In this document: one piece after another, positions 21,554 to 40,729 of the stretch
Layout of the letters: every line of letters starts with the position of its first letter
How positions within the stretch are numbered: the first letter of the stretch is position 1
Origin: a plasmid
Sequence record: CP033547.1
Reading direction: 5' to 3' (one strand)
Length of the DNA: 64,000 nucleotides
Position numbers and translations under genes: made by a program
The notes under the pieces: model-generated
What the model was told of the DNA's origin: nothing
The model's database searches: none
The model's input: only the letters and a program-made list of their open reading frames with translations

Positions 21554-21646
21554 AGAGTCATATCCTGAGAAGTTATTTAGATCATCATAAACCAGACATT
21601 TTTAATGGTGAGAATACAGACACTTTAAATGGTTTCTAACAAGATT

Positions 21647-23130
21647 TGTTATTCCCAAGTAGAAATGTCCTACCTAATAACCAAATAGAAATGTCCTATA
21701 TGGACATTTCCAAGTCAAGCACAGGATTTAGATTTCGTTGTTCAATCGCTGTTTTCTGTGCTTGTCTACGTGGCATCTTTTGAGAACGATTGCGTTTGTT
21801 TTGGTGTTCCAGTTGTTCATGCTGTTGTTGAATATGTGCCAGCACAGAACCCAAACGTTTATTCTCAACGATCTCTCGCTGGTTGAGCTGACTTAATTTA
21901 TCAAAGATGCTGTAATTGATTTTTCTTCCCTGATATTCAATGGCTACAGTACCATCCGGATATTCCAAGGAACTCAAGATACTTGCCGCCCAATCTTTGA
22001 TTTTTCTTCGCTGTTTTCCAAGATATATACGCATTTATCATAAGTAATCGTCAAGCTGTTCGTGACCCTGCGGGGTTCACGCCAGGTAAAAACATCATCT
22101 AATTCTTCGGCTGTTTCAGCGATAGGCCGATGTAGATCCTTGGAATTAAAAGCCATCTTGGCGAATTTACGATTAAATTGCTCAATAAAGCACGGCAGCC
22201 ACTTATTGGCATCTGCAATTGAACTGATGCCTTCTAGACGCATCTCCTTAATCAGACGATCCTGAAGTGTTCTATTCGCTCGTTCTACACGACCTTTGGC
22301 TTGAGGGGAGTTAGCGAAAATGATATCGATATTGAGAGTGCTCAGAACACGTCCAAACTGGGTAATCTTGGTGTCTTTCTTGCTACTTTGATTCACCCTA
22401 AAAACTGAATGTTTGTCACTGTAAAATGCCAATGGCTTACCATGCTGTTCGATATATAAACGTGTCGAAATCATATAGTCAAAGGCTGACTCTGACGCAC
22501 AGAAGCGTAAATGCTGCAATTTTCCTGTGGCATCATCGATGAATACTAGCAGACAGCATTTAGGTGCTCGACCTTCAAACCAATCATGGTGTGAGCCATC
22601 AATTTGGATCAATTCACCATAACAATCTCGGTTATAACGAGGCTGATATGGTCGTTTCAGGCGCTTGCAGCGAGGGATCCATAAATCGGCTGCAATCATC
22701 CAGGAACGCAGGGTTTCTACTGAAAGATCGAATCCATGCACGGTGGTGAGCTTTTCATGCGCTAAAGTGGGTCCGAAACCATAAAGTTGATCTGAAACAA
22801 TATTGAGACACTTAAGTCTGAGTTCTTCAGGAAGTTTAGAATTGCTGATTTGGCCACGACCGGCATGGGCTAATGCAGCGGGACCTTGAGCTTTGTATTT
22901 CTGCAGTAAGCGTCTGATGTGACGTTCTGAGATATGAAGTAGCTGAGCAGCCTGGGATTGAGTTATACGTTGATCACAGATTTCTTGCAAGACCGACAAT
23001 CGTTTAAGTTCTTTATCCGACATAGACACCAACATATCAAACCGTCCGCTAAGGAAATTGCAAAAGCGCATATTCTAAAAGCGGACATTTTTACTTTGGA
23101 GAAACCGGACATTTCTATTTTGGGCTTACA
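21647..23130 (-). mobile_element. IS copy C (same ISNCY/IS1202-like element, 1484 bp), flanked by AAGATT duplication; least damaged copy
   Basis: AAGATT at 21641-21646 and 23131-23136; same terminal sequences as copies A/B. Confidence 0.85.
21696..23071 (-). CDS. IS transposase (~470 aa; N-terminal HTH, DDE/rve integrase core), one frameshift at ~22000 (extra T)
   Basis: MRFCNFLSGRFDMLVSMSDKELKRLSVLQEICDQRITQSQAAQLLHISERHIRRLL...IQIDGSHHDWFEGRAPKCCLLVFIDDATGKL... Confidence 0.8.
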
Positions 23131-23136
23131 AAGATT

Positions 23137-23164
23137 GCTTCACATAAGAGATTTTATGTTAAAT
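23137..23164. other. pdif site (XerC-spacer-XerD): GCTTCACATAA GAGATT TTATGTTAAAT
   Basis: dif-like 11-6-11 immediately after TSD of IS copy C. Confidence 0.7.
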
Positions 23165-23762
23165 GTCTTTTTTCATTGCTCTCTGAACTGTTGCAATACC
23201 TACAAACAAAATAAACGCAATCGTTCTCAAAAGATGCCAAGCAGACGTGCACAGAAAACAGTAATCAAAGAACGAAATCTGAATCCTGTGCTTGACTTGG
23301 AAATGTCTGTATAGGACATTTCTACTTGGGAATAACATCATCATGCTATATAAGTATTTAACCGTATTCTTTTATTTTTTGGCGCACCATGTATATAGAT
23401 ACAAAAAAAAGCAATTATTGGATAAATTAATATAGCTCCACCTGCTCGACCATCTACGGATGGAGATAAGGACATGCTTAAAACAATAAATACAATAAGA
23501 TATAAAATATAACATGTTCCCCAAGTTAATAATCCAAAGAGTATAGGGAAACAAAATTTTGAAATAACTCCAAAGGGCTTCGATCTTTTATAGAGATGCT
23601 TTTCAAAAGATTATTCGAAATATTAACAGCAACAATTGTCATAAATAGATTAAAAAGCAGAAAATAAAGCATACTAAAAATTAAATATGAAAAATAATTT
23701 ATTATATATTAGTTGATTAAATTTAACATTAATTAAAATATACGTTTAAAGATAAGCAATAA

Positions 23763-23790
23763 AAAACCCCGACATCCTGTCGGGGTTTTT
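23763..23790. terminator. Bidirectional rho-independent terminator AAAAACCCCGACATCCTGTCGGGGTTTTT
   Basis: Perfect GC-rich stem flanked by A-run and T-run. Confidence 0.55.
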
Positions 23791-24193
23791 CGTGTTTGGT
23801 TGCAAGGTATAACTCCTGTCGTACCTAACCATCCTTGTGCTGATCTTTCTTATTCTTATTGTTTGGAGCTTCCTGCTCTCTATGACTTCATCATAAGAAA
23901 TAACGCTTTGATCAGCTAGAAGCAGATTCCTTAAATTACTGTACGTCAAAGCGTACAAAACTGGCTTAAAAATAGCCCCCAGATTTATCCGCAGAAATTG
24001 TGGATTTTTTTCAGGCTGAAAGCCTTATAGATTGTAGGTGATTTTCTGTTTTGAGTGTTTTTAAGCAAAACTGTTGGCAAAAATATCAAAACCGCTCACA
24101 AAAAAAGCCGACTATTTCAAAGTCGGCTTTTTGGGCATTTTGGATTTTTATGATTTAAATAAGTATCTGATTTTTATATTAATATACGAGTGT

Positions 24194-24221
24194 ATTGCGT
24201 ATAAGCACCATTATGTTAAAT
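24194..24221. other. pdif site (XerC-spacer-XerD): ATTGCGTATAA GCACCA TTATGTTAAAT
   Basis: dif-like 11-6-11. Confidence 0.7.
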
Positions 24222-24290
24222 AGACAGTGAATTAGTGGAAAAATCCAGTTATTGTGAAGCGTGGATAAGAGATTTTATGTCGAGCAATGA

Positions 24291-24776
24291 TTACCTATCA
24301 ACAAAGTATTCAGATAAAGTCTGTTTCCATTGAGATTGTATCTCTTTATTCTTATCTCTATATTTCTCAATACATTTCATAAGGTTATATCTATTTTTTG
24401 TACAAATAGTATCTGCTATTTTACTTAATACATCTATTTGATAAGGAATAGTTAGGCCAAATTTCTCAAGGAGAATATCTATTTCTGGTAAAAATAATCT
24501 GACTAATTCTTCATTAGATTTATTAAATTTGTTTTTAAATTCTTGAGGAATACATGAATTTCCTATGCGATCATAAATTTCAGGATTTTGAACATAATGC
24601 TTATTTTCCAATATAAGGCCTTTGTATCTAAGATACTCAATATCAATTTTTGATAAATCTTGCTCAAGAAAATAATAACAAGTCCATTTTATTTGTGATA
24701 AATGAGTTAATTCAACAAATTGGAATGGTCTCTCAATATATATTCCCGTATTATTTATTATTTCACTAATAAACAA
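24291..24776 (-). CDS. Hypothetical protein (161 aa), downstream of and co-oriented with the CBASS-like operon
   Basis: ORF only; no recognisable domain. Confidence 0.35.
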   Translation of the reverse strand: MFISEIINNTGIYIERPFQFVELTHLSQIKWTCYYFLEQDLSKIDIEYLRYKGLILENKHYVQNPEIYDRIGNSCIPQEFKNKFNKSNEELVRLFLPEIDILLEKFGLTIPYQIDVLSKIADTICTKNRYNLMKCIEKYRDKNKEIQSQWKQTLSEYFVDR

Positions 24777-24814
24777 TATAAAATTAATATGATTCTTATT
24801 TAGATATTTTAGAG

Positions 24815-24918
24815 TAGACCTCTTGCGAAAGTATTATTTTTGACTATTTTAGACTTTGATATTTATTTAAAAATCAACGTTTATCACTGATTAAATTTTG
24901 ACTAACGCAAGAGGTCTA
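24815..24918. repeat. MITE-like 104-bp element with 13-bp terminal inverted repeats TAGACCTCTTGCG...CGCAAGAGGTCTA; same left end as IS5-family remnant at 31033
   Basis: TAGACCTCTTGCGAAAGTA at 24815 and 31033; inverted copy at 24903-24918. Confidence 0.6.
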
Positions 24919-25093
24919 TATATTATTGGGGATATTAAAGTGAAGAGAGTCGCTGAGACTTATACAACTTAAAAAATATTTATGTATGCCGACCTTATTT
25001 AAAACAAAAAGACTCTTAATTAAAAAAAACAATATATTTATTTTAACAATTAACTGCTTCGTTAATTAGTCATTTAATCTAACTAAAGAATAT

Positions 25094-26167
25094 CTACAAA
25101 GTCGGTTTCTCTTCAATAGATGAAGTATTAGAACTTTCTGAAAATTTACCATTATGTAATTTTTCAAAGCAATGTGGACAGGTGTCTCGAGCCACTAATT
25201 TCATATCATTAATTTTTCTACCAGTGTAACCAATACTGTAACGAGTAAAATAGTTATTTTCTAATTGATTAGAATTTCTCCATTCTAAAAGAAGATCGAT
25301 TGCTAAACCCGCCACAGATAGACTGGATGAAACTGAATAAGGAGTATATGCAGCGCAAGGTCCCAAGCCCATAACTTTTTTATAGTCCTTATTCCCTAGA
25401 GGGTCTAAATCATCTTTATAATCCTGTATTCCAGATTGATGCAAACAACTAATACATCCACCTTTACTCTCATAATCGGAAGGAGTATTCATCAATGCTT
25501 GCACACATTCTCCATTGCCATATATCCATAAATGTAAAAGGTGTGGCCTATCATGTGCAGGTATTTGAATTATCTTTTCATTTAAATACTCTGCGATTTC
25601 AACTTGTCCAGTAGAATCTACTATTAAATCATATTCGTCAAAATTACTAATTGTATTTACACTTTTTTCTACAGAGTGAATGAAAAGTCCATTATTACCA
25701 ACCTGCTCTTTAATATATTCGATTATTGCATTTGCTTTATTTAATCCAATATACTTTTTCCCTAATATATGTCTTCCTATATTTTCAAGTTTAAGGTCAT
25801 CATAATCACAAACACTAAAACAACCTGTTTCCATACCAGCACCAATTTTAACTAATGCATCTGCAACATATCCTCCGATTGCACCTGCTCCAATTTGTAA
25901 AATTTTCAGATTCGTTAAATTATTGTTTTTAATACCTTCTATATTTCTATTAATTAATTCTTGCATACAGTAACTCTTTATATAAACAGGTAACACCATC
26001 TCCCTCAATATTTCCGATAATATTCTCACATTCCCTTTTAACAATTTATAATATTTACTCTTCCATTCTACAAAAAATGAAAAAAAATGATTCTCAAAGA
26101 CCAAAGAAACGAATATTTTTTTATCGGATTTAAATTTATTTAAATTTCTTTTTAAAACAAAAAACAA
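25094..26167 (-). CDS. cap2: E1-like (ThiF/MoeB-family) adenylyltransferase, Cap2-like
   Basis: Rossmann GAGAIGG, two CxxC (GCISCLHQ, CPHCF); 357 aa; ORF 26271..26570 upstream may be its N-terminal (E2?) part. Confidence 0.7.
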   Translation of the reverse strand: MFFVLKRNLNKFKSDKKIFVSLVFENHFFSFFVEWKSKYYKLLKGNVRILSEILREMVLPVYIKSYCMQELINRNIEGIKNNNLTNLKILQIGAGAIGGYVADALVKIGAGMETGCFSVCDYDDLKLENIGRHILGKKYIGLNKANAIIEYIKEQVGNNGLFIHSVEKSVNTISNFDEYDLIVDSTGQVEIAEYLNEKIIQIPAHDRPHLLHLWIYGNGECVQALMNTPSDYESKGGCISCLHQSGIQDYKDDLDPLGNKDYKKVMGLGPCAAYTPYSVSSSLSVAGLAIDLLLEWRNSNQLENNYFTRYSIGYTGRKINDMKLVARDTCPHCFEKLHNGKFSESSNTSSIEEKPTL

Positions 26168-26270
26168 TTAGGATCAATATCATTAATAAATAAAAACATT
26201 TTCCCTAATGTTATCTCCCCCTCCCTATTAAAGTAATTTGACAATAAAGGAATATTATCTTTAAAAACTT

Positions 26271-26570
26271 TCAACAAAATAAAATCAAAATCAATCGTTT
26301 TTGACATTTATTATCTTTAGTAGAAATATATGTTAAAGGTAGATTCTGAAAACTCCCATTATTATTTAACTCCACAAATAAGTTTTCAGAACTATACTTT
26401 TTCTCAAACTCATTTGAAAATATCATCCACATTGGAATTATTTCTTTTCTCAACTCTTTCATAAAAATTGAGGGATTCATTAATTCTAATATTACATGTT
26501 TAAATTGGCTTTCCAGAAAACATATAACATCTACCAGATTCTTTCTATTAATTTCTATTTTGTCATGCAA
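26271..26570 (-). CDS. Hypothetical 99-aa ORF between JAB and E1 genes (possibly N-terminal portion of Cap2 separated by frameshift)
   Basis: ORF only; contains Cys (DVICFLES) but no clear UBC motif. Confidence 0.3.
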   Translation of the reverse strand: MHDKIEINRKNLVDVICFLESQFKHVILELMNPSIFMKELRKEIIPMWMIFSNEFEKKYSSENLFVELNNNGSFQNLPLTYISTKDNKCQKRLILILFC

Positions 26571-26882
26571 GGCATAGCAAAAATTATAGGCTTTTTATTC
26601 AAATAAGTAAAATGAGAATCAATTGAAAAATGAGGCAAAGGGAAAATAAAATGTTTAATCCTTTTATTTACTTCCAATTAAATCATCTTCAAACAAATAC
26701 ACTCTTGGAGGATTAATAAAATCCCAATCCAAAAAAAAATACACCTAATCTTATATTGAATCCAGATACAACAATATTTTTCACCCATAAACTATTGTAA
26801 AACCGTTTTTTTAAATTTGTATCATAGGGATCCACTAGATTATAACCTAGCTGTGTAAGATATTGAGCACATGAAGCGGGAA

Positions 26883-27383
26883 TCAAAGCGTATCCCCCTC
26901 ATAAACTCTTAAAGCATAATATTTTTTATTTAAAAGTAAACTAAACCAATCTTCTTTATAACTTTTGTTTCCTGCTATCCATAGTAACTTAGGAAGCTCA
27001 TTAAATTTCCCATTACTAATAAGTTGACTCCACCCTTGATAATCACAATTAGAAGGCCGTGGTTGTGGTTCTGGATGAGTATGCCATTCGCCTATATATT
27101 GTAATATCCCATTTGAAATTTCATGTACCTTGTTTAAATAACTTTGATGTTTTGTAGACTTTCTATGAAAGCTATAAATAGTTCTTTCATCATCATCTGC
27201 TGGAGAACTAATATCGATTACCCTTAATGATTTACTACGTATTTCACCAATAATTATTCCACACGCCTCAGCTTTTTGAGCATCTGCAAACTGTCTGTGA
27301 AGATGAATTAAATGAAGTGCACTATCTGTTAAGTGCACTTCAAATCTTAGTTCATCAGAATAAAGATGCAAGCCCAACTTCAC
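26883..27383 (-). CDS. cap3: JAB/MPN+ (JAMM) metallopeptidase, Cap3-like
   Basis: JAMM motif E...HTHPEPQPRPSNCD (HxHx7Sx2D); GTG start overlaps upstream stop (GTGA). Confidence 0.8.
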   Translation of the reverse strand: MKLGLHLYSDELRFEVHLTDSALHLIHLHRQFADAQKAEACGIIIGEIRSKSLRVIDISSPADDDERTIYSFHRKSTKHQSYLNKVHEISNGILQYIGEWHTHPEPQPRPSNCDYQGWSQLISNGKFNELPKLLWIAGNKSYKEDWFSLLLNKKYYALRVYEGDTL

Positions 27384-28563
27384 CCACCCCTTGTAGGTTC
27401 AATTATTGCTGGGGACGTAGCTTGATATGGCAATTCCTGATTAGCATTCTCAATAACCACATAACTTTCATTGTCAGGAATTCTTTTTCCGAATTGGCTT
27501 CGCAGAAAACCAATTGAAGTTTTAGGTGATTCAATATCAATAGCTACTGAAACTGCGCTAAGTAAATCTTTAGCTAAATCATGCGCTTCTTGTCTTTCCT
27601 CTTTAGGAATTCTATTGAAGTCTTCATCTGTATGTTCAGGAATAGAAGGTTCTTTGACTGGCCCAAGTAATGCCTTTGGGAGATGTCTTAAAACATGCAA
27701 TAAAAGCAAGATCATCTCTATCTTTAACATATTGATAATTTTGATTTGCTATAATCATCAGCAATATTGAGCTTGGCCCTCCACCATCTTTATATTCTTG
27801 ATCTCGCCAAGCTTTAAGATAACGAGCAATATATCTTAATTGCCGACCATTATCTTCTTGATCAGCCAAAAAATCTGCATACCATTTACGAATTAACTCA
27901 CAGTCACTATCTTTCCAATTACCATCACGTAAAGCCATATGGATTTTAGTAATGTAATGTAATTCGATGATTTTCGCTTCACTTTCAAAGCTTTCAGTTG
28001 CGTAGTGATAACCCTTGAATACATATTCATCTTTGGCAATTGTTGCTTTTGCCTCATCTAGAATCATATTGTTTCTTTCAACTAAGCTATCGAACATTGG
28101 ATCAGGTACAATATAAAGAGGTACATCCATATGTGCATTGCCTTTCAATATAAGTCGGCAACAAGTATTTTTATCTTTACATAGTTTCCAACCCTCACTA
28201 TCAGCCAAAGGTTGCAATAACGTTTCCACTGCCAAATAATATGATTTAGCTACCTTATCAGAACGTCCCTGAGCTAATAAAGAATTTGGAAGGTACACAC
28301 CATAATCAACATCCATTTCTTGTGTAGGGTATGCTGGCTGGTTACAAGTACCATAAGCCCAAGATCCTTGAAGACGGAATTTTGGCTTAACAAGATTTGG
28401 ATCGCCTCCATTCTCTACAATGAAATTTGCCATACCTTGCTTCCAGCGTGGCTCTTACCTTTTGACGACACGCATTTAAATAATCACGCTGATCATTTGT
28501 AGGCTTAATTTGTGTAATAAAGCCGTCATCTCTAGCTCTAAAAGTTCTGTGTAAATTACTACC
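27380..28563 (-). pseudogene. cdn: cGAS/DncV-like nucleotidyltransferase (CD-NTase/SMODS), two frameshifts (near 27700 and 28440)
   Basis: GS...DxD motif: RLQGSWAYGTCNQPAYPTQEMDVDYGVYLP, third acidic HMDVPLY; N-terminal MGSNLHRTFRARDDGFITQIKPTNDQRDYLNACRQKVRATLEA in adjacent frame. Confidence 0.7.
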
Positions 28564-29583
28564 CATTTAATTTATCTCCCCCTACATTTTTTTGTGGCCC
28601 ATCAAACCATTCTCTTTTTCTAGAAGGCTGATTAAAATAATTTCGTATAAAATCTTTGCCCAATGCAACTTTTGCAGATTGAATTCCATTTCCTTCAAGT
28701 ACTTGCTTAGCAGCATCACTTGTTTCATCTAGTCCAATAAATTGGGCTGATGCTTGCACGATCTGTTCGTCGATTTTGTAAAATTGGTTTGGAAATGGTT
28801 CCATTCTATGCTTAACCATTTGTTCCATAAATTGTTGCTGGCTACTCAAAACTAGATCAATAATATTTGGAGCTGCCTTAAGGATAGACCCCTCACCCCA
28901 ATCTAGGTATCCACCATCTTTTTTTTGTACTTGGATTAAGCTGCTTTTTTGACGATAAAGTACCAATCGAAAGAATGTGTACATCTTGAATATTCTTTTT
29001 AAACATATAATCAGCTTCATGTAAGCCAATCAAGCTAGGATCATTAGCAAAAAGCCCACCATCTACATATTCATTTGGACCAATCGGATGTCGTGGAAAA
29101 TAAGTAGGCGCTGCAGATGTAGCTAAAGCTACATCAACTATTTTTAATTTCCAATCACGTTTCAGATTTGGATTATGTGGTGTTTTCAGGGTTACAGGAC
29201 TGCCTCGTGTGAAATCAATTGTAGGAATAACTACAGGACATTTGAGATCTCCTAAAATTGAATCTCCGAACCACTCTTCTAAGACAGTTTTCAATGATTC
29301 ATTAGAGTATTTTGAACCTGTAAATTTAAGAAAAGGCTTAGGCTGAAATATTTTATCACCGTGTGATTTAAACAAATCAACGATAGCTTCAACTTTTATT
29401 CCATAAGCAATTGCCAACGCGACTATACCACCGACAGAGGTACCGGTTATTAGATCAAAACAATCAGCTATAGAGTCGTGTCCATTTTCTTTAGCTTCTT
29501 GCTCTAATTCTTTTAAAACTGTTGCAGTGAATAACCCTCGATATCCCCCCTCCTGATAGAGCTAGGATTTGAAATTTTTCCAT
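28559..29583 (-). pseudogene. capV: Patatin-like phospholipase effector (CapV-like), frameshifts (G6 run ~29555; ~29025)
   Basis: MEKFQILALSGGG(Y)RG oxyanion motif, GTSVGG (GxSxG), DGGLFANDP (DGG). Confidence 0.75.
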
Positions 29584-29932
29584 TTTTGTTGAACTTATAA
29601 TATGAATTACTTTTTTTTTATGAGGCCATTTGTGTGAATTTCAACCCATTTTTTGAAAAAAAATTTATATTTTTGTTGGTTTTGTTGCATAAACATTTTG
29701 CAAGGTACTGATTTTTTAAAGGTTTGCGCAGAATTTCAACCTAAGAATAAATTTAATAAAATCATATTCTTAGGTATTTATGCAACAAAGCCTTTTTGTT
29801 TGCAAGAGCTACTTATATGCACTGCTATTATATTGAGTAATATATTTCTAAAAATTAAGATGGAGTTTTACTCTTATAACAAATAAAATTTAGTAACAAT
29901 ATATTTTTTATAATTTAATTTAGGTATATCTA

Positions 29933-30379
29933 GTGACACATTCAGTCGATCGACTCATACATAACTCACTTAAAGAAATATGTAAAAAATGTAAAGAAGA
30001 TTTTTCAGGCTTAGCGATAGTTTGTTATGAGGATTTAAGTCACCTTCCCTATATAAGCTTACATAAAGAACAATTTTTTACCGATTTTGATTTAAAAAAT
30101 ATTAATGAAACCTTACTGAGAATATCTACTTATTCTTCAGCCTACCATGATGGATTTCATTTCTATGATATTAACTCTAAAAAATTAACCCATATTTCTC
30201 AATTCATCTCCCCTCCGTTAGAGTCTGTAGCATATATGAATATTGAAAATATCATTCCTTGCGGTGCTCGTGAGATGACAGCTTACTTAACATCGAGTAT
30301 TCAAGGAATATTTTGTGTAGGCCTGATCAGTGCCAATAAGACTATAAAAGTTTTTAAAAACAACTCAATTGTTAAATAA
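29933..30379 (+). CDS. Hypothetical 148-aa soluble protein, divergent from CBASS operon
   Basis: ORF only. Confidence 0.35.
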   Translation: MTHSVDRLIHNSLKEICKKCKEDFSGLAIVCYEDLSHLPYISLHKEQFFTDFDLKNINETLLRISTYSSAYHDGFHFYDINSKKLTHISQFISPPLESVAYMNIENIIPCGAREMTAYLTSSIQGIFCVGLISANKTIKVFKNNSIVK

Positions 30380-30390
30380 CGGGTAAGTGC

Positions 30391-31032
30391 ATGAGTTTTT
30401 TAGTACTAAAATTTAATGAGCTAACAAAAATAATTTACTTATTTGTAGGACTTACTGGTGTATTTATTGGATTAATACAATTTGTTAATTGGCTTGTTGC
30501 TGGAAGTCTAACTTTACTCCAATCTCTAACCCCTTCCATTACCGTATCACTTTTTATCTTAGGCTTACTTCTTAGAACAGTTACAATTAAGCATAAGTTT
30601 TTAAGTATTATTATTGGCAAGCCAATTATACATGGATTATGGAAAGGGAATTTGACGAGCAATTTTGAGGTAAATGGACAAAAAATTCCTCCAATTGAAA
30701 TCTATTTCTTCATAAAGCAGACTTTCTTAATAACCACCATCAAATCTTACACCTCACATCAGGCATCTGAATCAATCATTACAGCTTTGTCCCACAATAA
30801 AGACAGTGAAATTTCTGATTTTATCTATATTTATAAGTTTTATCGGACAAAACATAGTGAAAATAAGGTGACTTTCGGTAGTGGAAATTTAAGACTAATC
30901 AACCAAGGACAAACTTTGGAAGGCTTCTATTGGACTACTGCAAATACATGCGGTGAAATCGAGTTAAATTTGATAGAACGTAATTGTGAAAGCATAGACT
31001 CCTATCAACTAGCAAAGCAACATGATAAATAA
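30391..31032 (+). CDS. Hypothetical 213-aa protein with two N-terminal TM helices and beta-rich C-terminus (Cap15/S-2TMbeta-like architecture)
   Basis: IIYLFVGLTGVFIGLIQFVNWLVAG and ITVSLFILGLLLRTV hydrophobic helices then soluble domain. Confidence 0.4.
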   Translation: MSFLVLKFNELTKIIYLFVGLTGVFIGLIQFVNWLVAGSLTLLQSLTPSITVSLFILGLLLRTVTIKHKFLSIIIGKPIIHGLWKGNLTSNFEVNGQKIPPIEIYFFIKQTFLITTIKSYTSHQASESIITALSHNKDSEISDFIYIYKFYRTKHSENKVTFGSGNLRLINQGQTLEGFYWTTANTCGEIELNLIERNCESIDSYQLAKQHDK

Positions 31033-31316
31033 TAGACCTCTTGCGAAAGTAAAAAATGCCTCAATATAGATTTCATGAGATATGAGAAATTAAACCGTTT
31101 TTCAGATTCTGAATTTAAGCGCTTGGTTGGTGTACCTCGACCAGTTTTTACTGGAAGTGGTCGATGTTTTAGAAAAAGCAGAATCACTTAAAAAGAAATC
31201 AGGTCGTCCTCATACTTTAGCTATAGAGGATCAATTATTATTAACGCTCAATTACTTACGCAACTACAACACTCAACTAGAATTGGCGGCATACTACCAT
31301 ATCGCTGAAAGTAATG
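31033..31316 (+). mobile_element. Truncated IS5-family element (IRL TAGACCTCTTGCGAAAGTA plus transposase N-terminus 31075..31316), cut by IS3-family insertion
   Basis: MRYEKLNRFSDSEFKRLVGVPRPVF...LEVVDVLEKAESLKKKSGRPHTLAIEDQLLLTLNYLRNYNTQLELAAYYHIAESNVNR typical IS5/DDE_Tnp_1 N-terminus. Confidence 0.6.
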
Positions 31317-32650
31317 TGAACCGTACCGGGTTTGTCGGAGAGTCAATATTCTGAGAGACTACCCCCGATGACAAAATTAAAATACACCCCTGAAATCAGA
31401 GATAGAGCGGTTCAATTATTGATTGAATCTGAAAAAGATTATCCTTCTACTTGGGCTGCAATCACAGCAATTGCGCCTAAGATTGGTTGTACTCCTGAAA
31501 CACTTCGTGCCTGGCATCAAAAGCATTTAGATCAGCAAAATCCAGTTAAAGTACAGCAGCTTTCAGACCAAGAACGTATCAAACAACTCGAACGCGAAAA
31601 TAAAGAAATAAAGAACTGCAACGCACCAATGAGATTCTACGTAAAGCAGCCGCTTTTTTCGCCCAGGCGGAGCTCGACCGCCCACACAAATAATGGTGGA
31701 TTTCATCCATAACAATAAAGATCGATATGGTGTTGATGCGATTTGTAGGATTTTACCGATCGCAGCTTCAACCTATTACCGAACTTTAGATCTCGCTGAC
31801 AATCCAGAACATCGAGCGAAACGAGATCTACATGATGAGTATCATGCTGAACAAATTCAACGAATTTGGAAAGAAAGTTCAGGTCGATATGGTGTGCGTA
31901 AGGTCTGGCAACAATTGAAACGTGAAGGTTATGTTATCGCACGTTGTACAGTTGCTCGATTGATGCAGAAGCTAGGTATACAAGGTGTCTGGCGTGGTAA
32001 GAATAAACAAACCACCCGTAGCCGAGATGATCAAAAACGAGCAGCTGACTTAGTGAAACGGAATTTTAGTGCAGATCAGCCCGACCACCTTACGAAACAG
32101 TGTTTCTCAGGTCACTGATTTTACGTATATTCAAACCCATTCAGGCTGGGTCTATACCGCCTTTATTATTGATGAGTTCTCACGAGCAATTGTTGGATGG
32201 AAAGTATCGACACGGATGAATACAGATATGGTGCTCGATGCATTAGAGCAAGCATTACATGATCGAGGTATACCCAAGAATGTGATTCATCATTCCGACA
32301 GAGGTGTGCAATATCTTTCCATTCGTTATACCAATCGTTTAGAAGCAGCAAATTTACGAGCTTCCAGTCGGTACAACTGGTGATTCATACGATAATGCTT
32401 TGGCTGAAACGGTGAATGGCTTATACAAAACAGAGGTGATTGAATATTTAAAAGCAGATTGGCGTGGTTTAGCAGATGTACAACTTGCGACATTAAACTG
32501 GGTAGATTGGTTCAATAAAGAGCGTGTACATAGTGCACTGGGTTATGTGTCACCTGTTGATTTTTGGAAGCAATGTACTATGATAAAATTAATCCGTTAG
32601 GTCAGGTAGCCTAACTTAAATAAAGTCTCCGACAAACCCGGTACGGTTCA
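31317..32650 (+). mobile_element. IS3-family IS copy 1 (1334 bp; IRs TGAACCGTACCGGGTTTGTCGGAGA), orfA/orfB heavily frameshifted; no TSD
   Basis: Terminal IRs at 31317 and 32622-32650; orfA MTKLKYTPEIRDRAVQLLIESEKDY..., orfB rve-domain fragments. Confidence 0.8.
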
Positions 32651-32710
32651 GGTTGATTTATCCAATAGCCTGCAATTAGTTGAATATTCTTATCTAAATA
32701 TAAAATTTTC

Positions 32711-33890
32711 CTTTGTACACGACAAAAAAAGATAACTCATTGAAATAATGGCATAATACTTGTTTTCTGACGACGAATATGATGACACATTTCAATGAGT
32801 TACATCTCATCTTAAACAAATATCTAAAGTGGAACAAGTCACATGCAAAATGTTTTACACTGATTATGCTTGCATTAATTGTAAAACAGACATGTAATCT
32901 TTCTTCTGCATCTAAAGCCTTACCCATCAAGTGCTTACCACAATCATTTTATCGACGTATACAACGCTTCTTTGCAGATCAGTATTTCGATTATCGTCAA
33001 ATTTCTCAGTTAATTTTCAATATATTTTCATTCGATAAAGTCCAATTAACTTTGGATAGAACCAACTGGAAATGGGGAAAACGAGATATCAATATCTTGA
33101 TGTTAGCCATCGTCTATCGTGGAATAGCGATACCTATTGTTTGGACATTGCTCAATAAACGTGGCAATTCAGATACAAAAGAGCGTATTGCTTTGATTCA
33201 ACGCTTTATCTCCATTTTTGGTAAAGATCGTATTGTGAATGTGTTCGCAGACAGAGAATTTATCGGTGAGAAATGGTTTACATGGTTAATTGAAAATGAC
33301 ATTCACTTCTGTATACGTGTTAAAAAAAACTTTATTGTGACCAATCACTTAGCCAAGAATCATAAAATTAGTGATTTATTTCGTCATCTTCAAGTTGGTC
33401 AAACAGAATGTCGTAAACGACGTATTTGGGTTGGTCGAGTGAAACTGTATATTAGTGCGCTACGATTAGAAGATGGAGAACTTTTACTTGTTGTTTCTCC
33501 TATGTTTAATGCTTCTGCTATTCGTGATTATGCATTACGCTGGGAAATCGAAACCTTATTTAGTTGTCTCAAAGGACGTGGATTCAATCTTGAAAATACT
33601 CGTTTAACAGACCCTAGACGAGTTAAGAAATTGATAGCAGTGCTAGCTATCGGTTTCTGTTGGTGCTATTTAACAGGTGAATGGCAACATGATCGAAAAA
33701 AGCGATAAAAATAAAGAAGCATGGACGACTTTCAATAAGTTTATTTCGCTACGGTTTGGACTATGTTCAAATGGTTATTCTACGTTTGATTGGTTTTGGA
33801 AAAAAAGAAGAATTTAAGAAAGTGCTCGCAATTTTAAGAAAGAAAAAGCCTGATAGAACAAGGGCCCTATGAAATTTGTCGTGTACAGAG
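32711..33890 (+). mobile_element. ISAba1-family IS4 element (1180 bp) with perfect 9-bp TSD AAAATTTTC; inserted at stop codon of integrase gene
   Basis: IRs CTTTGTACACGACAAA / CTCTGTACACGACAAATTTC; TSD 32702-32710 and 33891-33899; Tpase MTHFNELHLILNKYLKWNKSH... Confidence 0.85.
32782..33708 (+). CDS. IS4-family (ISAba1-like) transposase, C-terminal 50 aa in other frame
   Basis: 309-aa ORF; ~85% similar to the ISAba1 copy at 56356. Confidence 0.8.
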   Translation: MTHFNELHLILNKYLKWNKSHAKCFTLIMLALIVKQTCNLSSASKALPIKCLPQSFYRRIQRFFADQYFDYRQISQLIFNIFSFDKVQLTLDRTNWKWGKRDINILMLAIVYRGIAIPIVWTLLNKRGNSDTKERIALIQRFISIFGKDRIVNVFADREFIGEKWFTWLIENDIHFCIRVKKNFIVTNHLAKNHKISDLFRHLQVGQTECRKRRIWVGRVKLYISALRLEDGELLLVVSPMFNASAIRDYALRWEIETLFSCLKGRGFNLENTRLTDPRRVKKLIAVLAIGFCWCYLTGEWQHDRKKR

Positions 33891-33897
33891 AAAATTT

Positions 33898-35097
33898 TCA
33901 CTGAGCAGCACTTAAATAATCTCCCCACCACTGCATCATTTCAGTTCGTTGAATTAAATAATCCGCATGATTATAGCTAGCACGTGTACGATTCTTATCA
34001 ATATGCGAAAGTTGAGCCTCAATCCAATTATCTTGGAACAATCCTGAGTCATTCAAAATAGTACTGAAGGTAGAACGTAATCCATGGGAGGAAAGTTGAT
34101 GTTTTCCATACCCCATCTTACGTATAGCCATATTTAATGTATTAAAATGAATCGGGTGATCCTGCTTTCGCGGACTAGCAAAAATGAATTTTTCACCCAA
34201 TGACCATTGCATCGCATCTTTTAAGATCTCTAACGCCTGATCTGAAAGTGGAACTAAAAAATCTGGAATTTCATGTCCTAGGATAACTTTACGTCGAAAC
34301 TGTTTAATATGTAAGGCTGGAATTCTCCAAATTTTATCTTTTATATCAAAATGATGAGGTTCAGCCATTAACAACTCTGCCCCTCGCACGCCAGTATATA
34401 ATTTAAACATGAGTGCTTTTTTTAATAATGGGATGTGCATCCAACTTTTTTAATTTATGCATAAAATCTGAGATGTCTTCAGCTTTTAAATAAGGATAGT
34501 TCTTCTTGATTTTATTGTTAACAGCAATTTTATTTAAACCATGCGCGATATTATATTCACAATAGCCCATTGCTACAGCATAGTCAAAAATTTGGTTCAA
34601 ATAACTACAAGCTTTTTGACAGGTTCTTTAACTTGACGTGACTCTATTTTTCTAATTATTGAAACTAGGTCATAGCGCTTAATATCTTGAAAAGGGATAT
34701 CCTGAAGAACTGGATAAATATCATGCTGTAAACATTTTTCTGCTAACTGGAGAACACCACAGCGTGGTAAATCATTGAATGCATTTTTAAGTTTGAACTG
34801 TAGCCACTCCTCTGCTACCTGATGAAAAGTAATTAAATTAGAAACAGTTTCATTTTCAAAACAGAAATTATTATCTCTAAAATCATCCCTGACTTGTCGT
34901 GCCTTTTTCAGGGATAAATCAGGATAAAGCCCTAACTGAATTCGGCGGCGTTTCTTGGTTTTTGGATCTGTATATCGATAACTCCAAGACTTCCTTCCAT
35001 TTGGTTCAATTTTTAGACTAAGTCCATCTTCATCCGATAAAAAACAAGTTTTTTCCTTGCAATGAGCTTGGCGAACTTTAATTTCAGTAAGACTCAT
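33898..35097 (-). pseudogene. int: P4-type tyrosine integrase (~400 aa), two frameshifts
   Basis: N-terminal arm-binding ORF, core-binding ORF, catalytic ORF with HGLRSTFST (HxxR) and RASYNHADY (Tyr). Confidence 0.75.
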
Positions 35098-35491
35098 GAG
35101 ATTTGAATGAAACCTATCAATGGACTGATCAAATTAATTATACCAAAATAGAAGGACTTTCATATGATGCGTAGACTACGCATCATATATATTCTGTAAT
35201 ATATTGTTTTATATATTTAATATTTTAAGTATTTGTATTTTAGTAACCATTATAAGTACCACCTCTTCTTTAAGTTCCCAACAACTCACTTTTTCTGTCA
35301 TCAATGTTAAATAAGTCTTGTGCTTTAAATTCTTAGATGACCTCCTCTACCCTTTATTATCATTTTTATAAAAGTAACTATATGTACTCATTAAAATTTG
35401 TAGAGCTCAAAAACAAAAAAGACCGCTATATAGCAGTCTTTTAACTTAATTAAATAATAATTAATTCATTTTCATCATAAGTGCATAAGCA

Positions 35492-35746
35492 TCACGTTTG
35501 TTTTGACGCAATGATTCTATCTCGGACTTCGTCAGCTGTTTTACGAGAGTTGAGGATATACTTTGCTTCCCACTCTGTGAGCCTTTCGAAATCGTACCCG
35601 TAAATCGATTTCCACCATGCTTCAAGATTACCATATACATCCCTCAATTGCTGAAGAGTTTCTTTACTTAGAGCTAATTGTGATGAGTATTGTTTACCCG
35701 TCAGTGCATATGCTCCAATAACTTTATTCGTCCCAGTTGTTTCCAA
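35492..35746 (-). CDS. Hypothetical protein (84 aa)
   Basis: ORF only. Confidence 0.25.
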   Translation of the reverse strand: METTGTNKVIGAYALTGKQYSSQLALSKETLQQLRDVYGNLEAWWKSIYGYDFERLTEWEAKYILNSRKTADEVRDRIIASKQT

Positions 35747-36080
35747 TATGACCTTTTAATGATGGCTAGCATTAAATTTTACACTAAATTTACCGCTAGC
35801 ATCTCTTGGATATTATTTTTCGTATCAGGCAGCACTCTCAAAAGCCGTTTGTTTGGACAGTCCCCATGATCATACACGAGGCAGCTTCAAATACTTATGG
35901 GCCCATCCTATCCAGTTGTATCTTCTTGCATCACATGAATATTGTATACTCATTTTGACTACTTGAAAATTATGGAACAACGTCAATAAAAACAATAACT
36001 CTAGAGTCTTTAGTCGACATTCCTAAAAAGTGAACCGTACCGGGTTTGTCGGAGAGTCAATATTCTGAGAGACTATCCCG

Positions 36081-36398
36081 ATGACAAAATTAAAATATAC
36101 CCCTGAAATCAGAGAAAGAGCGGTTCAATTATTGATTGAATCTGAAAAAGATTATCCTTCTACTTGGGCTGCAATCACAGCAATTGCGCCTAAGATTGGT
36201 TGTACTCCTGAAACACTTCGTGCCTGGCATCAAAAGCATTTAGATCAGCAAAATCCTATTAAAGTACAACAGATATCTGATCAAGAAAAAATGAAGCAAA
36301 TGGAACGTGAAATTAAAGAATTAAAGCGTGCCAATGAAATTCTACGTAAAGCAGCCGCTTTTTTCGCCCAGGCGGAGCTCGACCGCCCACACAAATAA
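36081..36398 (+). CDS. IS3-family transposase OrfA (HTH, leucine zipper)
   Basis: MTKLKYTPEIRERAVQLLIESEKDYPSTWAAITAIAPKIGCTPETLRAWHQKHL... Confidence 0.85.
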   Translation: MTKLKYTPEIRERAVQLLIESEKDYPSTWAAITAIAPKIGCTPETLRAWHQKHLDQQNPIKVQQISDQEKMKQMEREIKELKRANEILRKAAAFFAQAELDRPHK

Positions 36399-37300
36399 TG
36401 GTGGATTTCATCCATAACAATAAAGACTTATATGGTGTTGATGCGATTTGTAGGATTTTACCGATCGCAGCTTCAACCTATTACCGGACTCTAGATCTCT
36501 GCGAAAATCCAGAACATCGAGCAAAGCGAGATTTACATGACTTGCATCATGCTGAGGAGATTAAACGAATTTGGAAGGAAAGTTCAGGTCGGTATGGTGT
36601 ACGTAAAGTCTGGCAAAAACTGAAACGTGAAGGCTATATTATTGCACGCTGTACTGTTGCTCGATTAATGAAAAAGCTAGGTATACAAGGTATTTGGCGA
36701 GGTAAGAACAAACAAACCACCCGTAGTCGAGATGACCAAAAACGAGCACCTGACTTGGTGAAACGGAATTTTAGAGCTGATCAGCCTAATCACTTGTGGG
36801 TTGCTGACTTTACCTATATTCAAACAAATTCAGGCTGGGTCTATACCGCCTTTATTATTGATGTGTTCTCACGAGCAATTGTTGGATGGAAAGTATCTAC
36901 ACGGATGAATACAGATATGGTACTCGATGCACTTGAGCAAGCATTGCACGATCGAGGCATGCCAAAGAATGTGATTCATCATTCCGATAGAGGTGTTCAA
37001 TATCTTTCTATTCGCTATACCAATCGTTTAGAAGCTGCAAATTTACGAGCATCAGTCGGTACAACTGGTGATTCATACGATAATGCTCTGGCTGAAACGG
37101 TGAATGGCTTATACAAAACAGAGGTGATTGAATATCTAAAAGCAGATTGGCAAGGTTTAGCGGATGTACAACTTGCGACACTAAACTGGGTAGATTGGTT
37201 CAATAAAAGCGTGTACACAGTGCACTGGGTTATGTATCGCCTTTTTGAGTTTGAAGCAATGTACTATGATAAGATTAACCCGTTAGGTCAGGTGGCCTAA
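36398..37300 (+). CDS. IS3-family transposase OrfB (rve DDE integrase core), C-terminal frameshift
   Basis: ...HLWVADFTYIQTNSGWVYTAFIIDVFSRAIVGWKVSTRMNTDMVLDALEQAL...HSDRGVQYLS... Confidence 0.85.
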   Translation: MVDFIHNNKDLYGVDAICRILPIAASTYYRTLDLCENPEHRAKRDLHDLHHAEEIKRIWKESSGRYGVRKVWQKLKREGYIIARCTVARLMKKLGIQGIWRGKNKQTTRSRDDQKRAPDLVKRNFRADQPNHLWVADFTYIQTNSGWVYTAFIIDVFSRAIVGWKVSTRMNTDMVLDALEQALHDRGMPKNVIHHSDRGVQYLSIRYTNRLEAANLRASVGTTGDSYDNALAETVNGLYKTEVIEYLKADWQGLADVQLATLNWVDWFNKSVYTVHWVMYRLFEFEAMYYDKINPLGQVA

Positions 37301-37561
37301 CTTAAATAAAAAGTCTCCGACAAACCCGGTACGGTTCAAAGGTAAATTCAACATTTCTTTCCATATCATTTCTTTGTGTCTCTGGATGAACAAAAGAAAC
37401 ATAGCTTATTTCAAAGAATCGGGCTAGGGTTTTTATGCCAATGATTTTGTTCTCTTCATTAGCAATTAAAACATCTAATTCCAGATCAAACTCTTCTAAT
37501 TATTTAATTAAATCTTTAACTTTCATTTTACTATCAACCTCTATGAATTATTTAAAAATTA

Positions 37562-37831
37562 TCACAATGAAACTTGTGAAAAAAAATGGATTTGAACAAA
37601 ATTTTTTAGCAAAAAAAGCATAGCAACCAGAAAAATCTTTCCAGCAATCAACAAAAATATCCCCGTGTGCTTCCAGTTTACAACATTTTGACTACCACAC
37701 TGCCCACAGTAGTAATAATAGCCTTTGATACGGCCACCGCATTCAGGACAATTTTTATGATTAATGAATAAGTTACTCAACGTCTCTTCTCCAAAATTCT
37801 TATTATCAAGTTGTAAGTGAAGATAGCACAC
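37562..37831 (-). CDS. Zinc-ribbon domain protein with C-terminal TM helix
   Basis: CPECGGRIKGYYYYCGQCGSQ four-Cys ribbon; hydrophobic tail. Confidence 0.4.
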   Translation of the reverse strand: MCYLHLQLDNKNFGEETLSNLFINHKNCPECGGRIKGYYYYCGQCGSQNVVNWKHTGIFLLIAGKIFLVAMLFLLKNFVQIHFFSQVSL

Positions 37832-37907
37832 ATTTATAAAAATGTCTTTTTTTAAAACATCAAAAGATGTTATAAAAAGACATTCGCTACTTTAGGATAA
37901 CTTTTAA

Positions 37908-38618
37908 GATGAATTTAAACCTCCTTGATGAAGAATCAATCCAACCTTCTGAACCCACGCCATGTGATTTTTTCAAAGGTGAAAATGCTATCAAAAAGCT
38001 AAACAGTTAGGATTACCTGATCTCGAGTTAGTCAGAAACGCAATTATGATCGGTGATGCTGACTATAGAACAAATACTCACTATAACCGTGCACGCTTTA
38101 TTGCACGATGGGGAAAAATTGGAGAACAGATTGCTTTACTGCTTCGACAATCTGATCCTGCTTGGATATTCCACAATGACAGCCAGCCAAGAATTGAGAA
38201 TACAGTAAAGAAAATACAAATTATCTTTATGAGCGGGAATATTGCATTGGGGTTAGCTGATCAAGTTGTATCAGCACACTGTGAAAAAGGATTAATGACA
38301 TTAAATAATATTAAGGAGAATCAGTCTGCTTATGATGATGAGACAAAATTGAGAACATGGATTTTATACTTTCCTTCAGCATCACATCCAGCCTATAAAG
38401 ACATTGATATCCCAAATATTCCTTTTGAATTTGCATACCCAACTAGCTTCGTACAGGACTTAAAAGCGAAAAAAATTTCAATTTTACCAAGTGACCATAC
38501 TTGCAGAATTGCATTTGAAATAGATAATACAGTTCCTGTAAAAACTGATCCTAAGCCAGTATTGGAACCATCTAATGAAATTAAACCAGATGATTTTGAT
38601 ATTCAGCTTGTAGTTTAA
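37908..38618 (+). pseudogene. Hypothetical protein (~236 aa), frameshift near 38010; upstream partner of HTH-ImmA/IrrE gene
   Basis: MNLNLLDEESIQPSEPTPCDFFKGENAIKK / ...LPDLELVRNAIMIGDADYRTNTHYNRARFIARWGKIGEQ... Confidence 0.4.
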
Positions 38619-38630
38619 TCTGAGGTTAAT

Positions 38631-40617: not shown

Positions 40618-40729
40618 CGCATCCTTGTTTATCCACAACTTTTTTAAATTTGAATTTTAAACGCTGTTAGTAATATCCTATTTAAACAAATTCTACTTCC
40701 AAACACGCCTCGTAGCGTAGGAGTATCTC

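Follow-up and report, generated by a model that had tools for sequence, protein, structure and literature searches.

PanS–PanE beside a plasmid-borne type II CBASS: a very probable copy of the PanDA/Panoptoo anti-phage system

Two preprints dated 11 August 2026 describe the same anti-phage system under the names PanDA (Nabhani, Sullivan et al., bioRxiv 10.64898/2026.08.10.743972, PMC13640721) and Panoptoo (Ragucci, Haley & Kranzusch, bioRxiv 10.64898/2026.08.10.743927). In this system the synthase PanS constitutively makes 3'3'-c-di-AMP or cUA, and this product represses the effector PanE; in the homologues studied, from E. coli and elsewhere, PanE alone is toxic, active PanS rescues, and PanS co-purifies with its product. 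Which ligand is physiological in E. coli is a point on which the preprints differ, the candidates being cUA and c-di-AMP. PanE binds c-di-AMP at micromolar affinity only, and phage sponges such as Acb4 take the signal away and so release PanE from repression; phage defence and sponge triggering have both been shown directly for homologues (PMC13640721). Both preprints find the system linked to CBASS operons that have patatin effectors and Ub-like machinery. In about half of PanDA systems CBASS is absent within 10 genes, and PanS is reported never to co-occur with non-immune diadenylate cyclases (DACs) (PMC13640721). In the earlier Panoptes system (OptS/OptE; Sullivan et al., Nature 2025, PMC12657218), sponges such as Acb2 act as triggers, and CBASS operons that have Cap2/Cap3 and a patatin or 2TMβ effector are often its neighbours.

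Here we describe a two-gene locus in a 64,000-nucleotide stretch of an Acinetobacter plasmid, sequence record CP033547.1 (the window), that very probably represents an intact copy of PanDA/Panoptoo. This is an already known kind of system, and the locus holds no new biology. The computed evidence for the pair covers its homology and fold, the catalytic motifs, the structure of the operon and the conserved link to CBASS.

The panS–panE operon and its proteins

The two genes lie on the plus strand, panS at 29933..30379 (148 aa, GTG start) and panE at 30391..31032 (213 aa, ATG start), both intact and co-oriented with 11 nt between them. The ORFs of 148 and 213 aa claimed for 29933-31032 in an earlier note on this DNA are thus both present at exactly those positions. 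Their products are identical to WP_000149838.1 and WP_000009204.1, which are found in eight near-identical Acinetobacter plasmids and are annotated as hypothetical proteins, and positions 29732-31152 show zero base differences from the reference plasmid. Alignments of either product with its conserved homologues contain many invariant columns, and on the strength of this conservation panS and panE are real genes and not chance ORFs.

The 148-aa protein is a stand-alone minimal diadenylate cyclase, homologous to crystallised PanS and predicted to be a constitutive 3'3'-c-di-AMP synthase. The profile of its family, which collects 305 representatives at E<=0.001, matches PDB entry 37jy ("Panoptoo PanS synthase") over residues 8-148 with E=3.6e-19, and a direct BLASTP comparison with the crystallised protein, RePanS, gives 29% identity (E=1e-16). 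An AlphaFold2 (AF2) model (pLDDT 81) points to the same fold: in a Foldseek search of the PDB, the top 38 of 38 matches were CdaA, DacA, DisA or CdaM, each at probability 1.0, and the model aligns with the CdaA, DacA and DisA catalytic domains across about 146 residues at a TM-score of about 0.6. The protein has no transmembrane segment (maximum 19-residue Kyte-Doolittle score 1.31), in keeping with the earlier description of it as soluble. The accompanying statement that it has no recognisable domain did not hold, since the minimal diadenylate-cyclase fold is missed only by standard domain libraries. Scans of the 148-aa sequence against Pfam, NCBIfam and PADLOC returned no match, and the Pfam DAC model PF02457 did not match it even at E<=1; the same model weakly matches 30 of 75 members of the wider PanS family, the best at 3.7e-6.

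The key residues of PanS are F24, G26, H72-D73-G74-F75-H76, G111-A112-R113, T116 and S121. Six of these (F24, G26, D73, G74, G111 and R113) are invariant in 75/75 family representatives, and H72, F75, H76 and S121 are conserved in at least 95% of them. The published PanS signature, in EcPanS numbering, comprises D68, G69, G103 and R105 (100%), F22, F70 and S113 (>99%) and the HDGFH motif (PMC13640721), and the corresponding RePanS residues are D71, G72, G107 and R108 (bioRxiv 10.64898/2026.08.10.743927). The signature is present here, as its equivalents are F24, H72-D73-G74-F75-H76, G111, R113 and S121. Three motifs differ: the "GGR" of RePanS is GAR, the canonical RHR is R-E-M, and the canonical DGA is DGF. 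At the nucleotide-specificity positions, PanS carries A112 and T116, a pair found in 24 of 26 Moraxellaceae homologues. The Acinetobacter enzyme "AbPanS", which has the same A112/T116 residues, yields c-di-AMP as its sole product from all four NTPs (PMC13640721), and by this match the product in this Acinetobacter clade is most likely 3'3'-c-di-AMP. The homologues fall into 38 clusters at 90% identity, with a patchy distribution confined to Moraxellaceae-type sequences.

The 213-aa protein is an S-2TMβ/Cap15-family effector. It scores 41 bits against Pfam PF18153 (Cap15_CD_rec; cut-off 31.2) and 1e-23 against the PADLOC models of CBASS "2TM" effectors. Its hydropathy profile shows a single long hydrophobic block at residues 10-67, which the AF2 model resolves into two helices at 8-35 and 43-63 (pLDDT 84-92); nine β-strands come after them, at 82-196. 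The model bears out the earlier proposal of two N-terminal TM helices followed by a β-rich domain. The β-domain is modelled at low confidence, with pLDDT 28-35 over residues 129-183. The top Foldseek matches are the Cap15 structures 7n34/7n35 (best, Yersinia Cap15; probability 0.97-0.98), although the E-value is weak (0.02); as the model is poor at 129-183, this result is supportive only. The best PDB match of the PanE profile is again Cap15 (E=0.03), and a single-sequence search of the PDB gave chance matches only. Taken as a whole, the Pfam score above cut-off, the PADLOC matches and the Cap15 top fold agree with the classification of this protein as a Cap15/S-2TMβ-type effector in the earlier note. 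The predicted β-barrel nucleotide receptor spans about residues 78-200, and Y180, W181, T182 and T186 are invariant among the homologues, which form 26 clusters at 90% identity.

The adjoining CBASS and the surrounding DNA

Upstream of panS, on the minus strand, lies a type II CBASS made up of capV (28559..29583; patatin phospholipase effector, by HMM match), a DncV-like CD-NTase (27380..28566; by HMM match), cap3 (26883-27383; JAB) and cap2 (25094 to about 26835; E1/E2-like ThiF). The closest solved structure to the CD-NTase is the V. cholerae cGAMP synthase DncV (E=3.5e-33). In the window, capV, the CD-NTase gene and cap2 are split by single-base indels (capV at 28919 and 29545; CD-NTase at 27702 and 28443), and all three are intact in the reference plasmid. 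We considered whether the CBASS had become a pseudogene; every difference is a single-base indel in a homopolymer or a CCAG/CTGG context, which are contexts typical of long-read errors, and pseudogenisation was therefore rejected. With capV the CBASS already has an effector, as the earlier note remarked.

The start codon of capV is the ATG at 29583 on the minus strand (MEKFQILALSGGG), and panS begins 349 bp away. The pair is thus transcribed away from capV as previously noted, across a spacing of 349 bp where 350 had been given, and it lies outside the CD-NTase operon, divergent from capV-cdn-cap3-cap2. The promoters of both units are presumed to lie in the intergenic region (29584..29932, 349 bp). 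A 115-nt element within it (29678-29792) can fold into a Y shape at -37.8 kcal/mol (z=-5.5). An Rfam scan of 29300-31300 gave no match, and a promoter and terminator scan found signals no commoner than in shuffles.

Among 21 related loci, panS is followed directly by panE in 19, and in 18 the pair has a CapV-CD-NTase-Cap2-Cap3 CBASS no more than about 2 kb away. The orientation of the pair relative to the CBASS takes four forms in these loci (divergent, convergent, tandem upstream and tandem downstream), and relatives of panSE are also chromosomal. In the window the pair has a low GC content of about 32% and a plasmid or island location, with an integrase, IS elements and the CBASS nearby. The carrier plasmid is mobilisable and has HipA/HTH modules and pdif modules aboard.

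The pair had also been placed inside a segment bracketed by an inverted repeat, and such a repeat does exist: two imperfect arms of 31 nt (24896..24926 and 31025..31055, the latter overlapping the panE stop codon) are 81% complementary and enclose the CBASS plus panSE. Taken alone, the repeat is statistically unconvincing: a Markov-1 model of random 14-kb sequences yields one just as good in 15% of cases, and the significance of the arms is uncertain. Given this chance rate, and a 13-nt core that is found once outside the element (at locus L013), we did not accept the repeat as the boundary of a mobile unit.

From these features and from the characterised homologues, we infer each functional step of the following model for the locus. 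PanS, which has no regulator, would continuously make a cyclic dinucleotide. PanE, an effector of Cap15 type that crosses the inner membrane twice, would bind this dinucleotide through its cytoplasmic β-barrel and would thereby be kept inactive. A phage nucleotide sponge of Acb4 or Acb2 type, aimed at the 3'3'-cGAMP-type signal of the adjoining CBASS, would drain the decoy dinucleotide too. PanE is predicted to permeabilise the inner membrane once its ligand is removed, so that the infected cell would die ahead of phage release. The pair would in this way guard the adjoining type II CBASS. Several points count against the assignment: the 29% identity to RePanS and the missing Pfam DAC match, the GAR and R-E-M motifs, the low-confidence β-domain model of PanE with its weak Cap15 E-value, the disagreement of the preprints over the E. 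coli ligand, and promoter and terminator signals no stronger than chance.

Alternative readings and significance

Several other readings of the pair were weighed. The broadest, framed for Moraxellaceae, joins several elements: because CBASS is linked to the pair in 18 of the 21 sampled loci, panSE might form an obligate third arm of the CapV/DncV/Cap2/Cap3 island, with PanE repressed by c-di-AMP and modulated by DncV cGAMP; and/or the pair might serve as an addiction module that stabilises the island, with the 115-nt element co-regulating both units. We consider this combination unlikely.

It is very unlikely that the pair is a positively signalling mini-CBASS, in which infection switches PanS on and its dinucleotide activates PanE. 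The shared family of PanE and ligand-activated Cap15 (PF18153, and the top structural match) would suit such a scheme, as would the intact DAC catalytic residues of PanS. However, PanS is a bare 148-aa catalytic domain without a sensor or regulatory module. Among the homologues, PanS is purified together with its product, and the toxicity that PanE shows by itself is relieved by active PanS. The merely micromolar affinity reported for PanE and c-di-AMP fits a releasable repressor ligand.

The tight linkage to a CapV-type type II CBASS (18/21 loci) and the preponderance of CBASS effectors among Cap15-family proteins (73% of 617; Ragucci preprint, bioRxiv 10.64898/2026.08.10.743927) might instead suggest that PanE serves the adjoining CBASS as a second, accessory effector and responds to the cGAMP of the DncV-like enzyme, the 148-aa protein being an unrelated accessory or sensor. 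This we regard as highly improbable, given that a cyclase-fold partner precedes PanE in 19/21 loci, that the crystal structure of a homologue of this partner contains the cyclic dinucleotide which that enzyme makes, that the orientation of the pair to the CBASS varies (divergent in the window), and that roughly half of PanDA systems are reported to lack a CBASS within 10 genes (PMC13640721). As for PanE being a Cap15 effector of the adjoining CD-NTase, its receptor domain and two TM helices are present but operon membership is not, and this assignment is not supported. The two genes form a transcription unit separate from the CBASS and encode a signal synthase of their own; together with the variable orientation, this leaves both the "second effector" and the "accessory sensor" of CBASS that the earlier note had offered unsupported. 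Its third suggestion, an independent uncharacterised defence pair, was right as to independence; "uncharacterised" no longer applies, since PanDA/Panoptoo has been described in the two August 2026 preprints.

We give very little weight to the idea that the pair is chiefly an addiction module, in which loss of the plasmid or island would stop dinucleotide synthesis, residual PanE would kill the cell, and the CBASS island would be stabilised by post-segregational killing. The toxicity of PanE and rescue by PanS in homologues amount to the logic of a toxin with a small-molecule antidote, and the location on a mobilisable plasmid with HipA/HTH and pdif modules also speaks for it; yet the same pair occurs in chromosomes, and homologues have been directly shown to act in phage defence and to be triggered by sponges. 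The addiction reading is compatible with a guard function. Finally, a housekeeping role outside defence, in which PanS and a membrane partner would use c-di-AMP signalling for osmoregulation or for homeostasis of the cell wall, suggested by the DAC fold common to CdaA and DisA, is scarcely credible for a PanS with no regulatory or TM domain and no Pfam DAC match, on a plasmid- or island-borne pair of about 32% GC near CBASS, an integrase and IS elements, with a patchy distribution (38 clusters at 90% identity, Moraxellaceae-type sequences only) and in a family reported never to co-occur with non-immune DACs (PMC13640721).

The reading of panSE as PanDA/Panoptoo means that a genuine defence system was, with high probability, found from sequence alone in genes whose public annotation is still "hypothetical protein". 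It also exposes an annotation gap, the PanS synthase being unrecognised by Pfam, NCBIfam and PADLOC v2, and the Moraxellaceae clade of PanS, which has GAR for GGR and escapes the Pfam DAC model, lends itself well to testing improved PanS profiles. Clinical A. baumannii and A. pittii plasmids that also bear resistance genes would carry a layered anti-phage island that combines a cGAMP-type CBASS with a decoy-signal guard against sponges. The design of phage therapy for Acinetobacter may be affected as well, since a phage that carries an Acb2- or Acb4-type sponge would be expected to trigger PanE.

Comparison with known systems

The locus shares with PanDA/Panoptoo a two-gene operon in which a minimal DAC of ~150 aa (PanS) is followed by a 2TM-β/Cap15-like effector (PanE), the HDGFH and G-x-R catalytic signature, an adjoining type II CBASS that encodes a patatin effector together with the Ub-like Cap2/Cap3, and a low-GC, mobile-element location. 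It differs in having GAR for "GGR", in its 29% identity to RePanS and its invisibility to the Pfam DAC model, and in a CBASS linkage of 18/21 in the relatives sampled here compared with about 50% overall.

Resemblance to the remaining systems is partial. DisA, CdaA and CdaS have the same catalytic fold, and their D-G and G-x-R residues are kept in PanS, whereas PanS lacks regulatory, TM or DNA-binding domains and has a longer lid loop; their role is homeostatic, and that predicted for PanS, in a gammaproteobacterial host, is immune. PanS does not belong with the canonical DACs of PF02457, having no match to that model, DGF and GAR-E-M motifs and no extra domain. Cap15 of CBASS (Duncan-Lowey et al. 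2021; PDB 7N34/7N35) has the PF18153 domain, the two N-terminal TM helices with a β-barrel nucleotide receptor, and the membrane-disrupting output that is predicted for PanE. However, Cap15 belongs to the operon of the CD-NTase and is switched on when it binds its ligand, whereas PanE is paired with a DAC of its own, is transcribed apart from the CBASS, and has characterised homologues that are repressed by ligand. Panoptes has an effector of the same family and operates by the same logic, in which a decoy dinucleotide from a constitutive minimal cyclase represses an S-2TMβ effector. Its synthase, however, is an mCpol (Cas10-palm) enzyme that makes 2',3'-c-di-AMP, whereas PanS has a DAC fold and is expected to make a 3',3'-linked product. 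A Pfam search of PanS for mCpol at E<=1 gave no match, and membership in mCpol/Panoptes was rejected because the fold of PanS is that of a DAC and not a Cas10 palm.

The panS-panE pair and its plasmid setting

The two ORFs form a real, intact and correctly delimited gene pair: panS (29933-30379, plus strand, GTG start, 148 aa) and panE (30391-31032, plus strand, ATG start, 213 aa) are separated by 11 nt from stop to start, exactly at the coordinates of the earlier note. The window is an Acinetobacter plasmid, and 29400-31200 shares 99.7% identity with eight plasmids of A. pittii and A. baumannii, on which both genes are labelled 'hypothetical protein'. Both are taken as intact because a base-by-base comparison with the reference plasmid pAOR07BL-2 (L001) found zero differences across 29732-31152.

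To the left of the pair, pAOR07BL-2 carries an intact type II CBASS, annotated as a cGAMP-activated phospholipase (CapV), a DncV-like CD-NTase, a JAB protein (Cap3) and a ThiF/E1-E2 protein (Cap2), all on the minus strand, whereas the CBASS genes of the window are fragmented. Pseudogenisation was rejected: of 27 differences from the reference in 23131-32710, 24 are single-base indels that fall in homopolymers or CCAG/CTGG contexts, a pattern characteristic of long-read sequencing error. Departures from the reference across 23131-41385 are almost all single-base indels (for example, 26159, 27702, 28443, 28919, 29545 and 34417), which fragment the reading frames of capV, the CD-NTase, cap2, an IS3 transposase and a tyrosine integrase and look like long-read error, not true pseudogenes. 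The capV start is the ATG at 29583 (minus strand; N-terminus MEKFQILALSGGG), 349 bp from panS and in line with the 350 bp proposed previously. The RefSeq capV model (375 aa; start at 9288 of L001, about window 29690) probably begins too far upstream, since a start at 29583 yields the usual MEKFQILALSGGG N-terminus and brings the protein close to the 331–341 aa of CapV in related loci.

Several other elements surround the pair. The imperfect inverted repeat said to bracket CBASS and pair is present (24896-24926 and 31025-31055; 31 nt, 81%), but we give it no weight because 15% of Markov-1 random 14-kb sequences hold one as good. Between its left arm and a pdif site at 24194, just left of the CBASS segment, lies a 161-aa ORF (24291-24776, minus strand, downstream of cap2) that is hypothetical in the reference and has no Pfam match. 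The window holds nine XerC/XerD-type pdif sites in all (chance expectation 0.01), the other eight (1872, 6827, 8394, 9249, 9892, 10616, 11111 and 11839) being grouped in 1.8–11.9 kb with alternating orientations, like Acinetobacter 'dif modules'. In the capV-panS intergenic region, a 115-nt nested inverted repeat (29678-29792) folds into a Y shape (-37.8 kcal/mol, z = -5.5; equal stability in 0 of 200 shuffles); it matches nothing in Rfam, and the corresponding region of a chromosomal A. pittii island (L002) lacks a conserved copy. Two window segments, 21646-23131 and 32710-33891, are missing from pAOR07BL-2. The latter is an IS (309-aa transposase; 24-nt inverted repeats at 32703-32726 and 33875-33898) lying between the integrase gene and the frameshifted IS3 copy downstream of panE, just past the right end of that copy (about 32660). 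A high-GC block at 53500-60500 (up to 62%) shares 99.8% identity with floR/sul2/ISVsa3/ISAba1 resistance regions, which occur on plasmids of Enterobacteriaceae and Acinetobacter by the thousand.

A minimal cyclase and a Cap15-type effector

PanS had no match in Pfam, NCBIfam or PADLOC, even at E ≤ 1, and its homologues in a word-indexed search (38 clusters) came only from Acinetobacter, Psychrobacter and a few metagenomic sequences, with invariant blocks HDGFHF, THISQ and GAREM. Its profile had one convincing match among solved structures, 37jy, the 'Panoptoo PanS synthase' RePanS (E = 3.6e-19, residues 8–148; 29% pairwise identity). The first 38 PDB matches of the AlphaFold2 model (pLDDT 81, pTM 0.81) in Foldseek were all diadenylate cyclases (DACs: CdaA, DacA, DisA, CdaM and DacM; probability 1.00, TM-score about 0.6), after which scores collapsed. 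The 148-aa partner, previously described as having no recognisable domain, is thus a minimal DAC. An exhaustive profile search gave 305 representatives (50% clustering), nearly all of 140–170 aa. Among 75 sampled members, Pfam DAC matched 30 weakly (best 3.7e-6; window PanS had no match), F24, G26, D73, G74, G111 and R113 were invariant, and H72, F75, H76 and S121 were at least 95% conserved. THISQ is invariant in 26 Moraxellaceae-clade homologues; in the wider family T86, H87 and Q90 are highly conserved and I88 and S89 vary.

The earlier assignment of PanE as a Cap15/S-2TMβ-type effector held. PanE matches the Cap15 cyclic-dinucleotide receptor domain (PF18153; 41 bits, cut-off 31.2) and 14 PADLOC CBASS '2TM effector' models (best 1.2e-23). 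Its single hydrophobic block (residues 10–67) is modelled by AlphaFold2 as two helices (8–35 and 43–63; pLDDT 84–92), followed by nine β-strands and a C-terminal helix. The best two Foldseek PDB matches were the Yersinia Cap15 receptor (7n34/7n35; probability 0.97–0.98), with a β-domain modelled poorly over 129–183, and Cap15 was again the sole near-significant PDB match of the family profile. Y180, W181, T182, T186 and G188 do not vary within the Moraxellaceae family, and their spacing appears to recall that of Y181/T183/T187, the suggested pocket residues of E. coli PanE (EcPanE) (PMC13640721).

Six-frame ORFs of 21 loci with PanS relatives at 31–99% identity (Acinetobacter, Psychrobacter, Marinomonas, Gilvimarinus, Luteimonas, Dechloromonas, Thiohalobacter, Thiobacillus and marine metagenomes) were scanned with purpose-built HMMs. 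PanE directly follows PanS in 19 of the 21. Co-occurrence with CD-NTases, a check suggested in the earlier note, was borne out by a CapV-CD-NTase-Cap2-Cap3 CBASS within about 2 kb of the pair in 18 loci; the remaining three comprise a 4-kb contig and two loci without any PanE. Relative to CBASS, the pair is divergent upstream (window, L001-L004, L011, L018), tandem downstream (L005-7, L016, L019), convergent (L008-10, L012-14, L017) or tandem upstream (L015), and these four positions argue that it is an autonomous unit that travels with CBASS, outside the CBASS operon.

Two metagenome-assembled Proteobacteria encode PanS-like minimal DACs with HDGFH and GQGAR (L021, 9962-10438; L022, 9950-10438) with no PanE downstream. 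In each case the cyclase gene closes an operon that also encodes an FkbM-type methyltransferase and DUF5662, joined in L022 by a 2H phosphoesterase (2'-5' RNA ligase superfamily). This is possibly a different use of the mini-cyclase, of which the accessible text of either preprint cited below makes no mention.

Probable decoy signalling and its alternatives

The system is already known: PanS-PanE was presented in two bioRxiv preprints of 11 August 2026 as Panoptoo (10.64898/2026.08.10.743927) or PanDA (10.64898/2026.08.10.743972, PMC13640721), overtaking the description 'uncharacterised'. The first reports pairs of minimal ~150-aa DAC proteins (PanS) and S2TMβ effectors (PanE), usually adjoining CBASS; a PanS product, 3'3'-cUA or 3'3'-c-di-AMP, that co-purifies with PanS; toxicity of PanE when alone; triggering of the full operon by the sponge Acb4; and a symmetric catalytic floor of D71, G72, G107 and R108 in the 1.5 Å RePanS structure (10.64898/2026.08.10.743927). 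These residues align to D73, G74, A112 and R113 of window PanS. In the second, PanS is defined by D68, G69, G103, R105, F22, F70, S113 and an HDGFH motif, the D68A and R105A mutants no longer relieve PanE toxicity, PanE makes the membrane permeable, and phage escaper mutations map to acb4 (PMC13640721).

Our homology, fold, motif and context results bear directly on the window pair; the biochemical and genetic steps were demonstrated for homologues only, and we infer every functional step here. Very probably, the locus works by a four-step decoy mechanism. PanS would constitutively synthesise 3'3'-c-di-AMP, which would fill the PanE β-barrel and keep PanE inert; a phage sponge aimed at the CBASS signal (Acb4 or, less strongly according to the preprints, Acb2) would drain c-di-AMP too; and ligand-free PanE would permeabilise the membrane, aborting infection. 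The guarded signal is probably 3'3'-cGAMP, as the window CD-NTase is nearest to V. cholerae DncV (E = 3.5e-33). We predict 3'3'-c-di-AMP as the decoy because window PanS has A112 and T116, a combination shared by 24 of 26 Moraxellaceae homologues and by the Acinetobacter AbPanS, which made only c-di-AMP from all four NTPs; these residues are equivalent to TmaDisA T107 and T111, and E. coli PanS has G104 and A108 there (PMC13640721). RePanS has G107/A111, counted from the profile alignment. EcPanE binds c-di-AMP (7.7 µM) and not cUA (PMC13640721).

A positively signalling mini-CBASS would likewise join a cyclase to a Cap15-type effector, but is improbable given that homologous PanE is toxic by itself. 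That PanE serves the neighbouring CBASS as a second effector would suit the tight linkage in 18 of 21 loci and is less probable still, with the pair placed in four ways around that operon. We doubt even more strongly that addiction is the pair's main role, to which the toxicity and its rescue in homologues would lend themselves and their triggering by a phage sponge would not. Housekeeping c-di-AMP signalling, despite the DAC fold, is scarcely credible for a cyclase that has no regulatory domain and lies beside CBASS.

Comparison with known systems

At the levels of sequence and context the window locus agrees with PanDA/Panoptoo throughout, and the earlier option of an independent defence pair was the right one, given its own cyclase and varying orientation to CBASS. 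We rejected membership in Panoptes (the synthase is a DAC, not mCpol), in CBASS as an in-operon Cap15 (the pair stands apart from the operon, in varying orientation, and brings its own cyclase) and in the canonical DACs (no Pfam match, motifs DGF and REM, no regulatory domain). The remaining value of the locus lies in annotation, as databases still miss PanS, and in its bearing on Acinetobacter phage therapy.

Differences between the characterised PanS and window PanS are modest, namely 29% identity and a change from GGR to GAR in the window protein. PanDA-linked CBASS generally has a 2TM-β or patatin effector and Ub-like machinery, and about 50% of PanDA systems have a CBASS no more than 10 genes away (PMC13640721), whereas this linkage is near-universal among the sampled relatives of the window clade.
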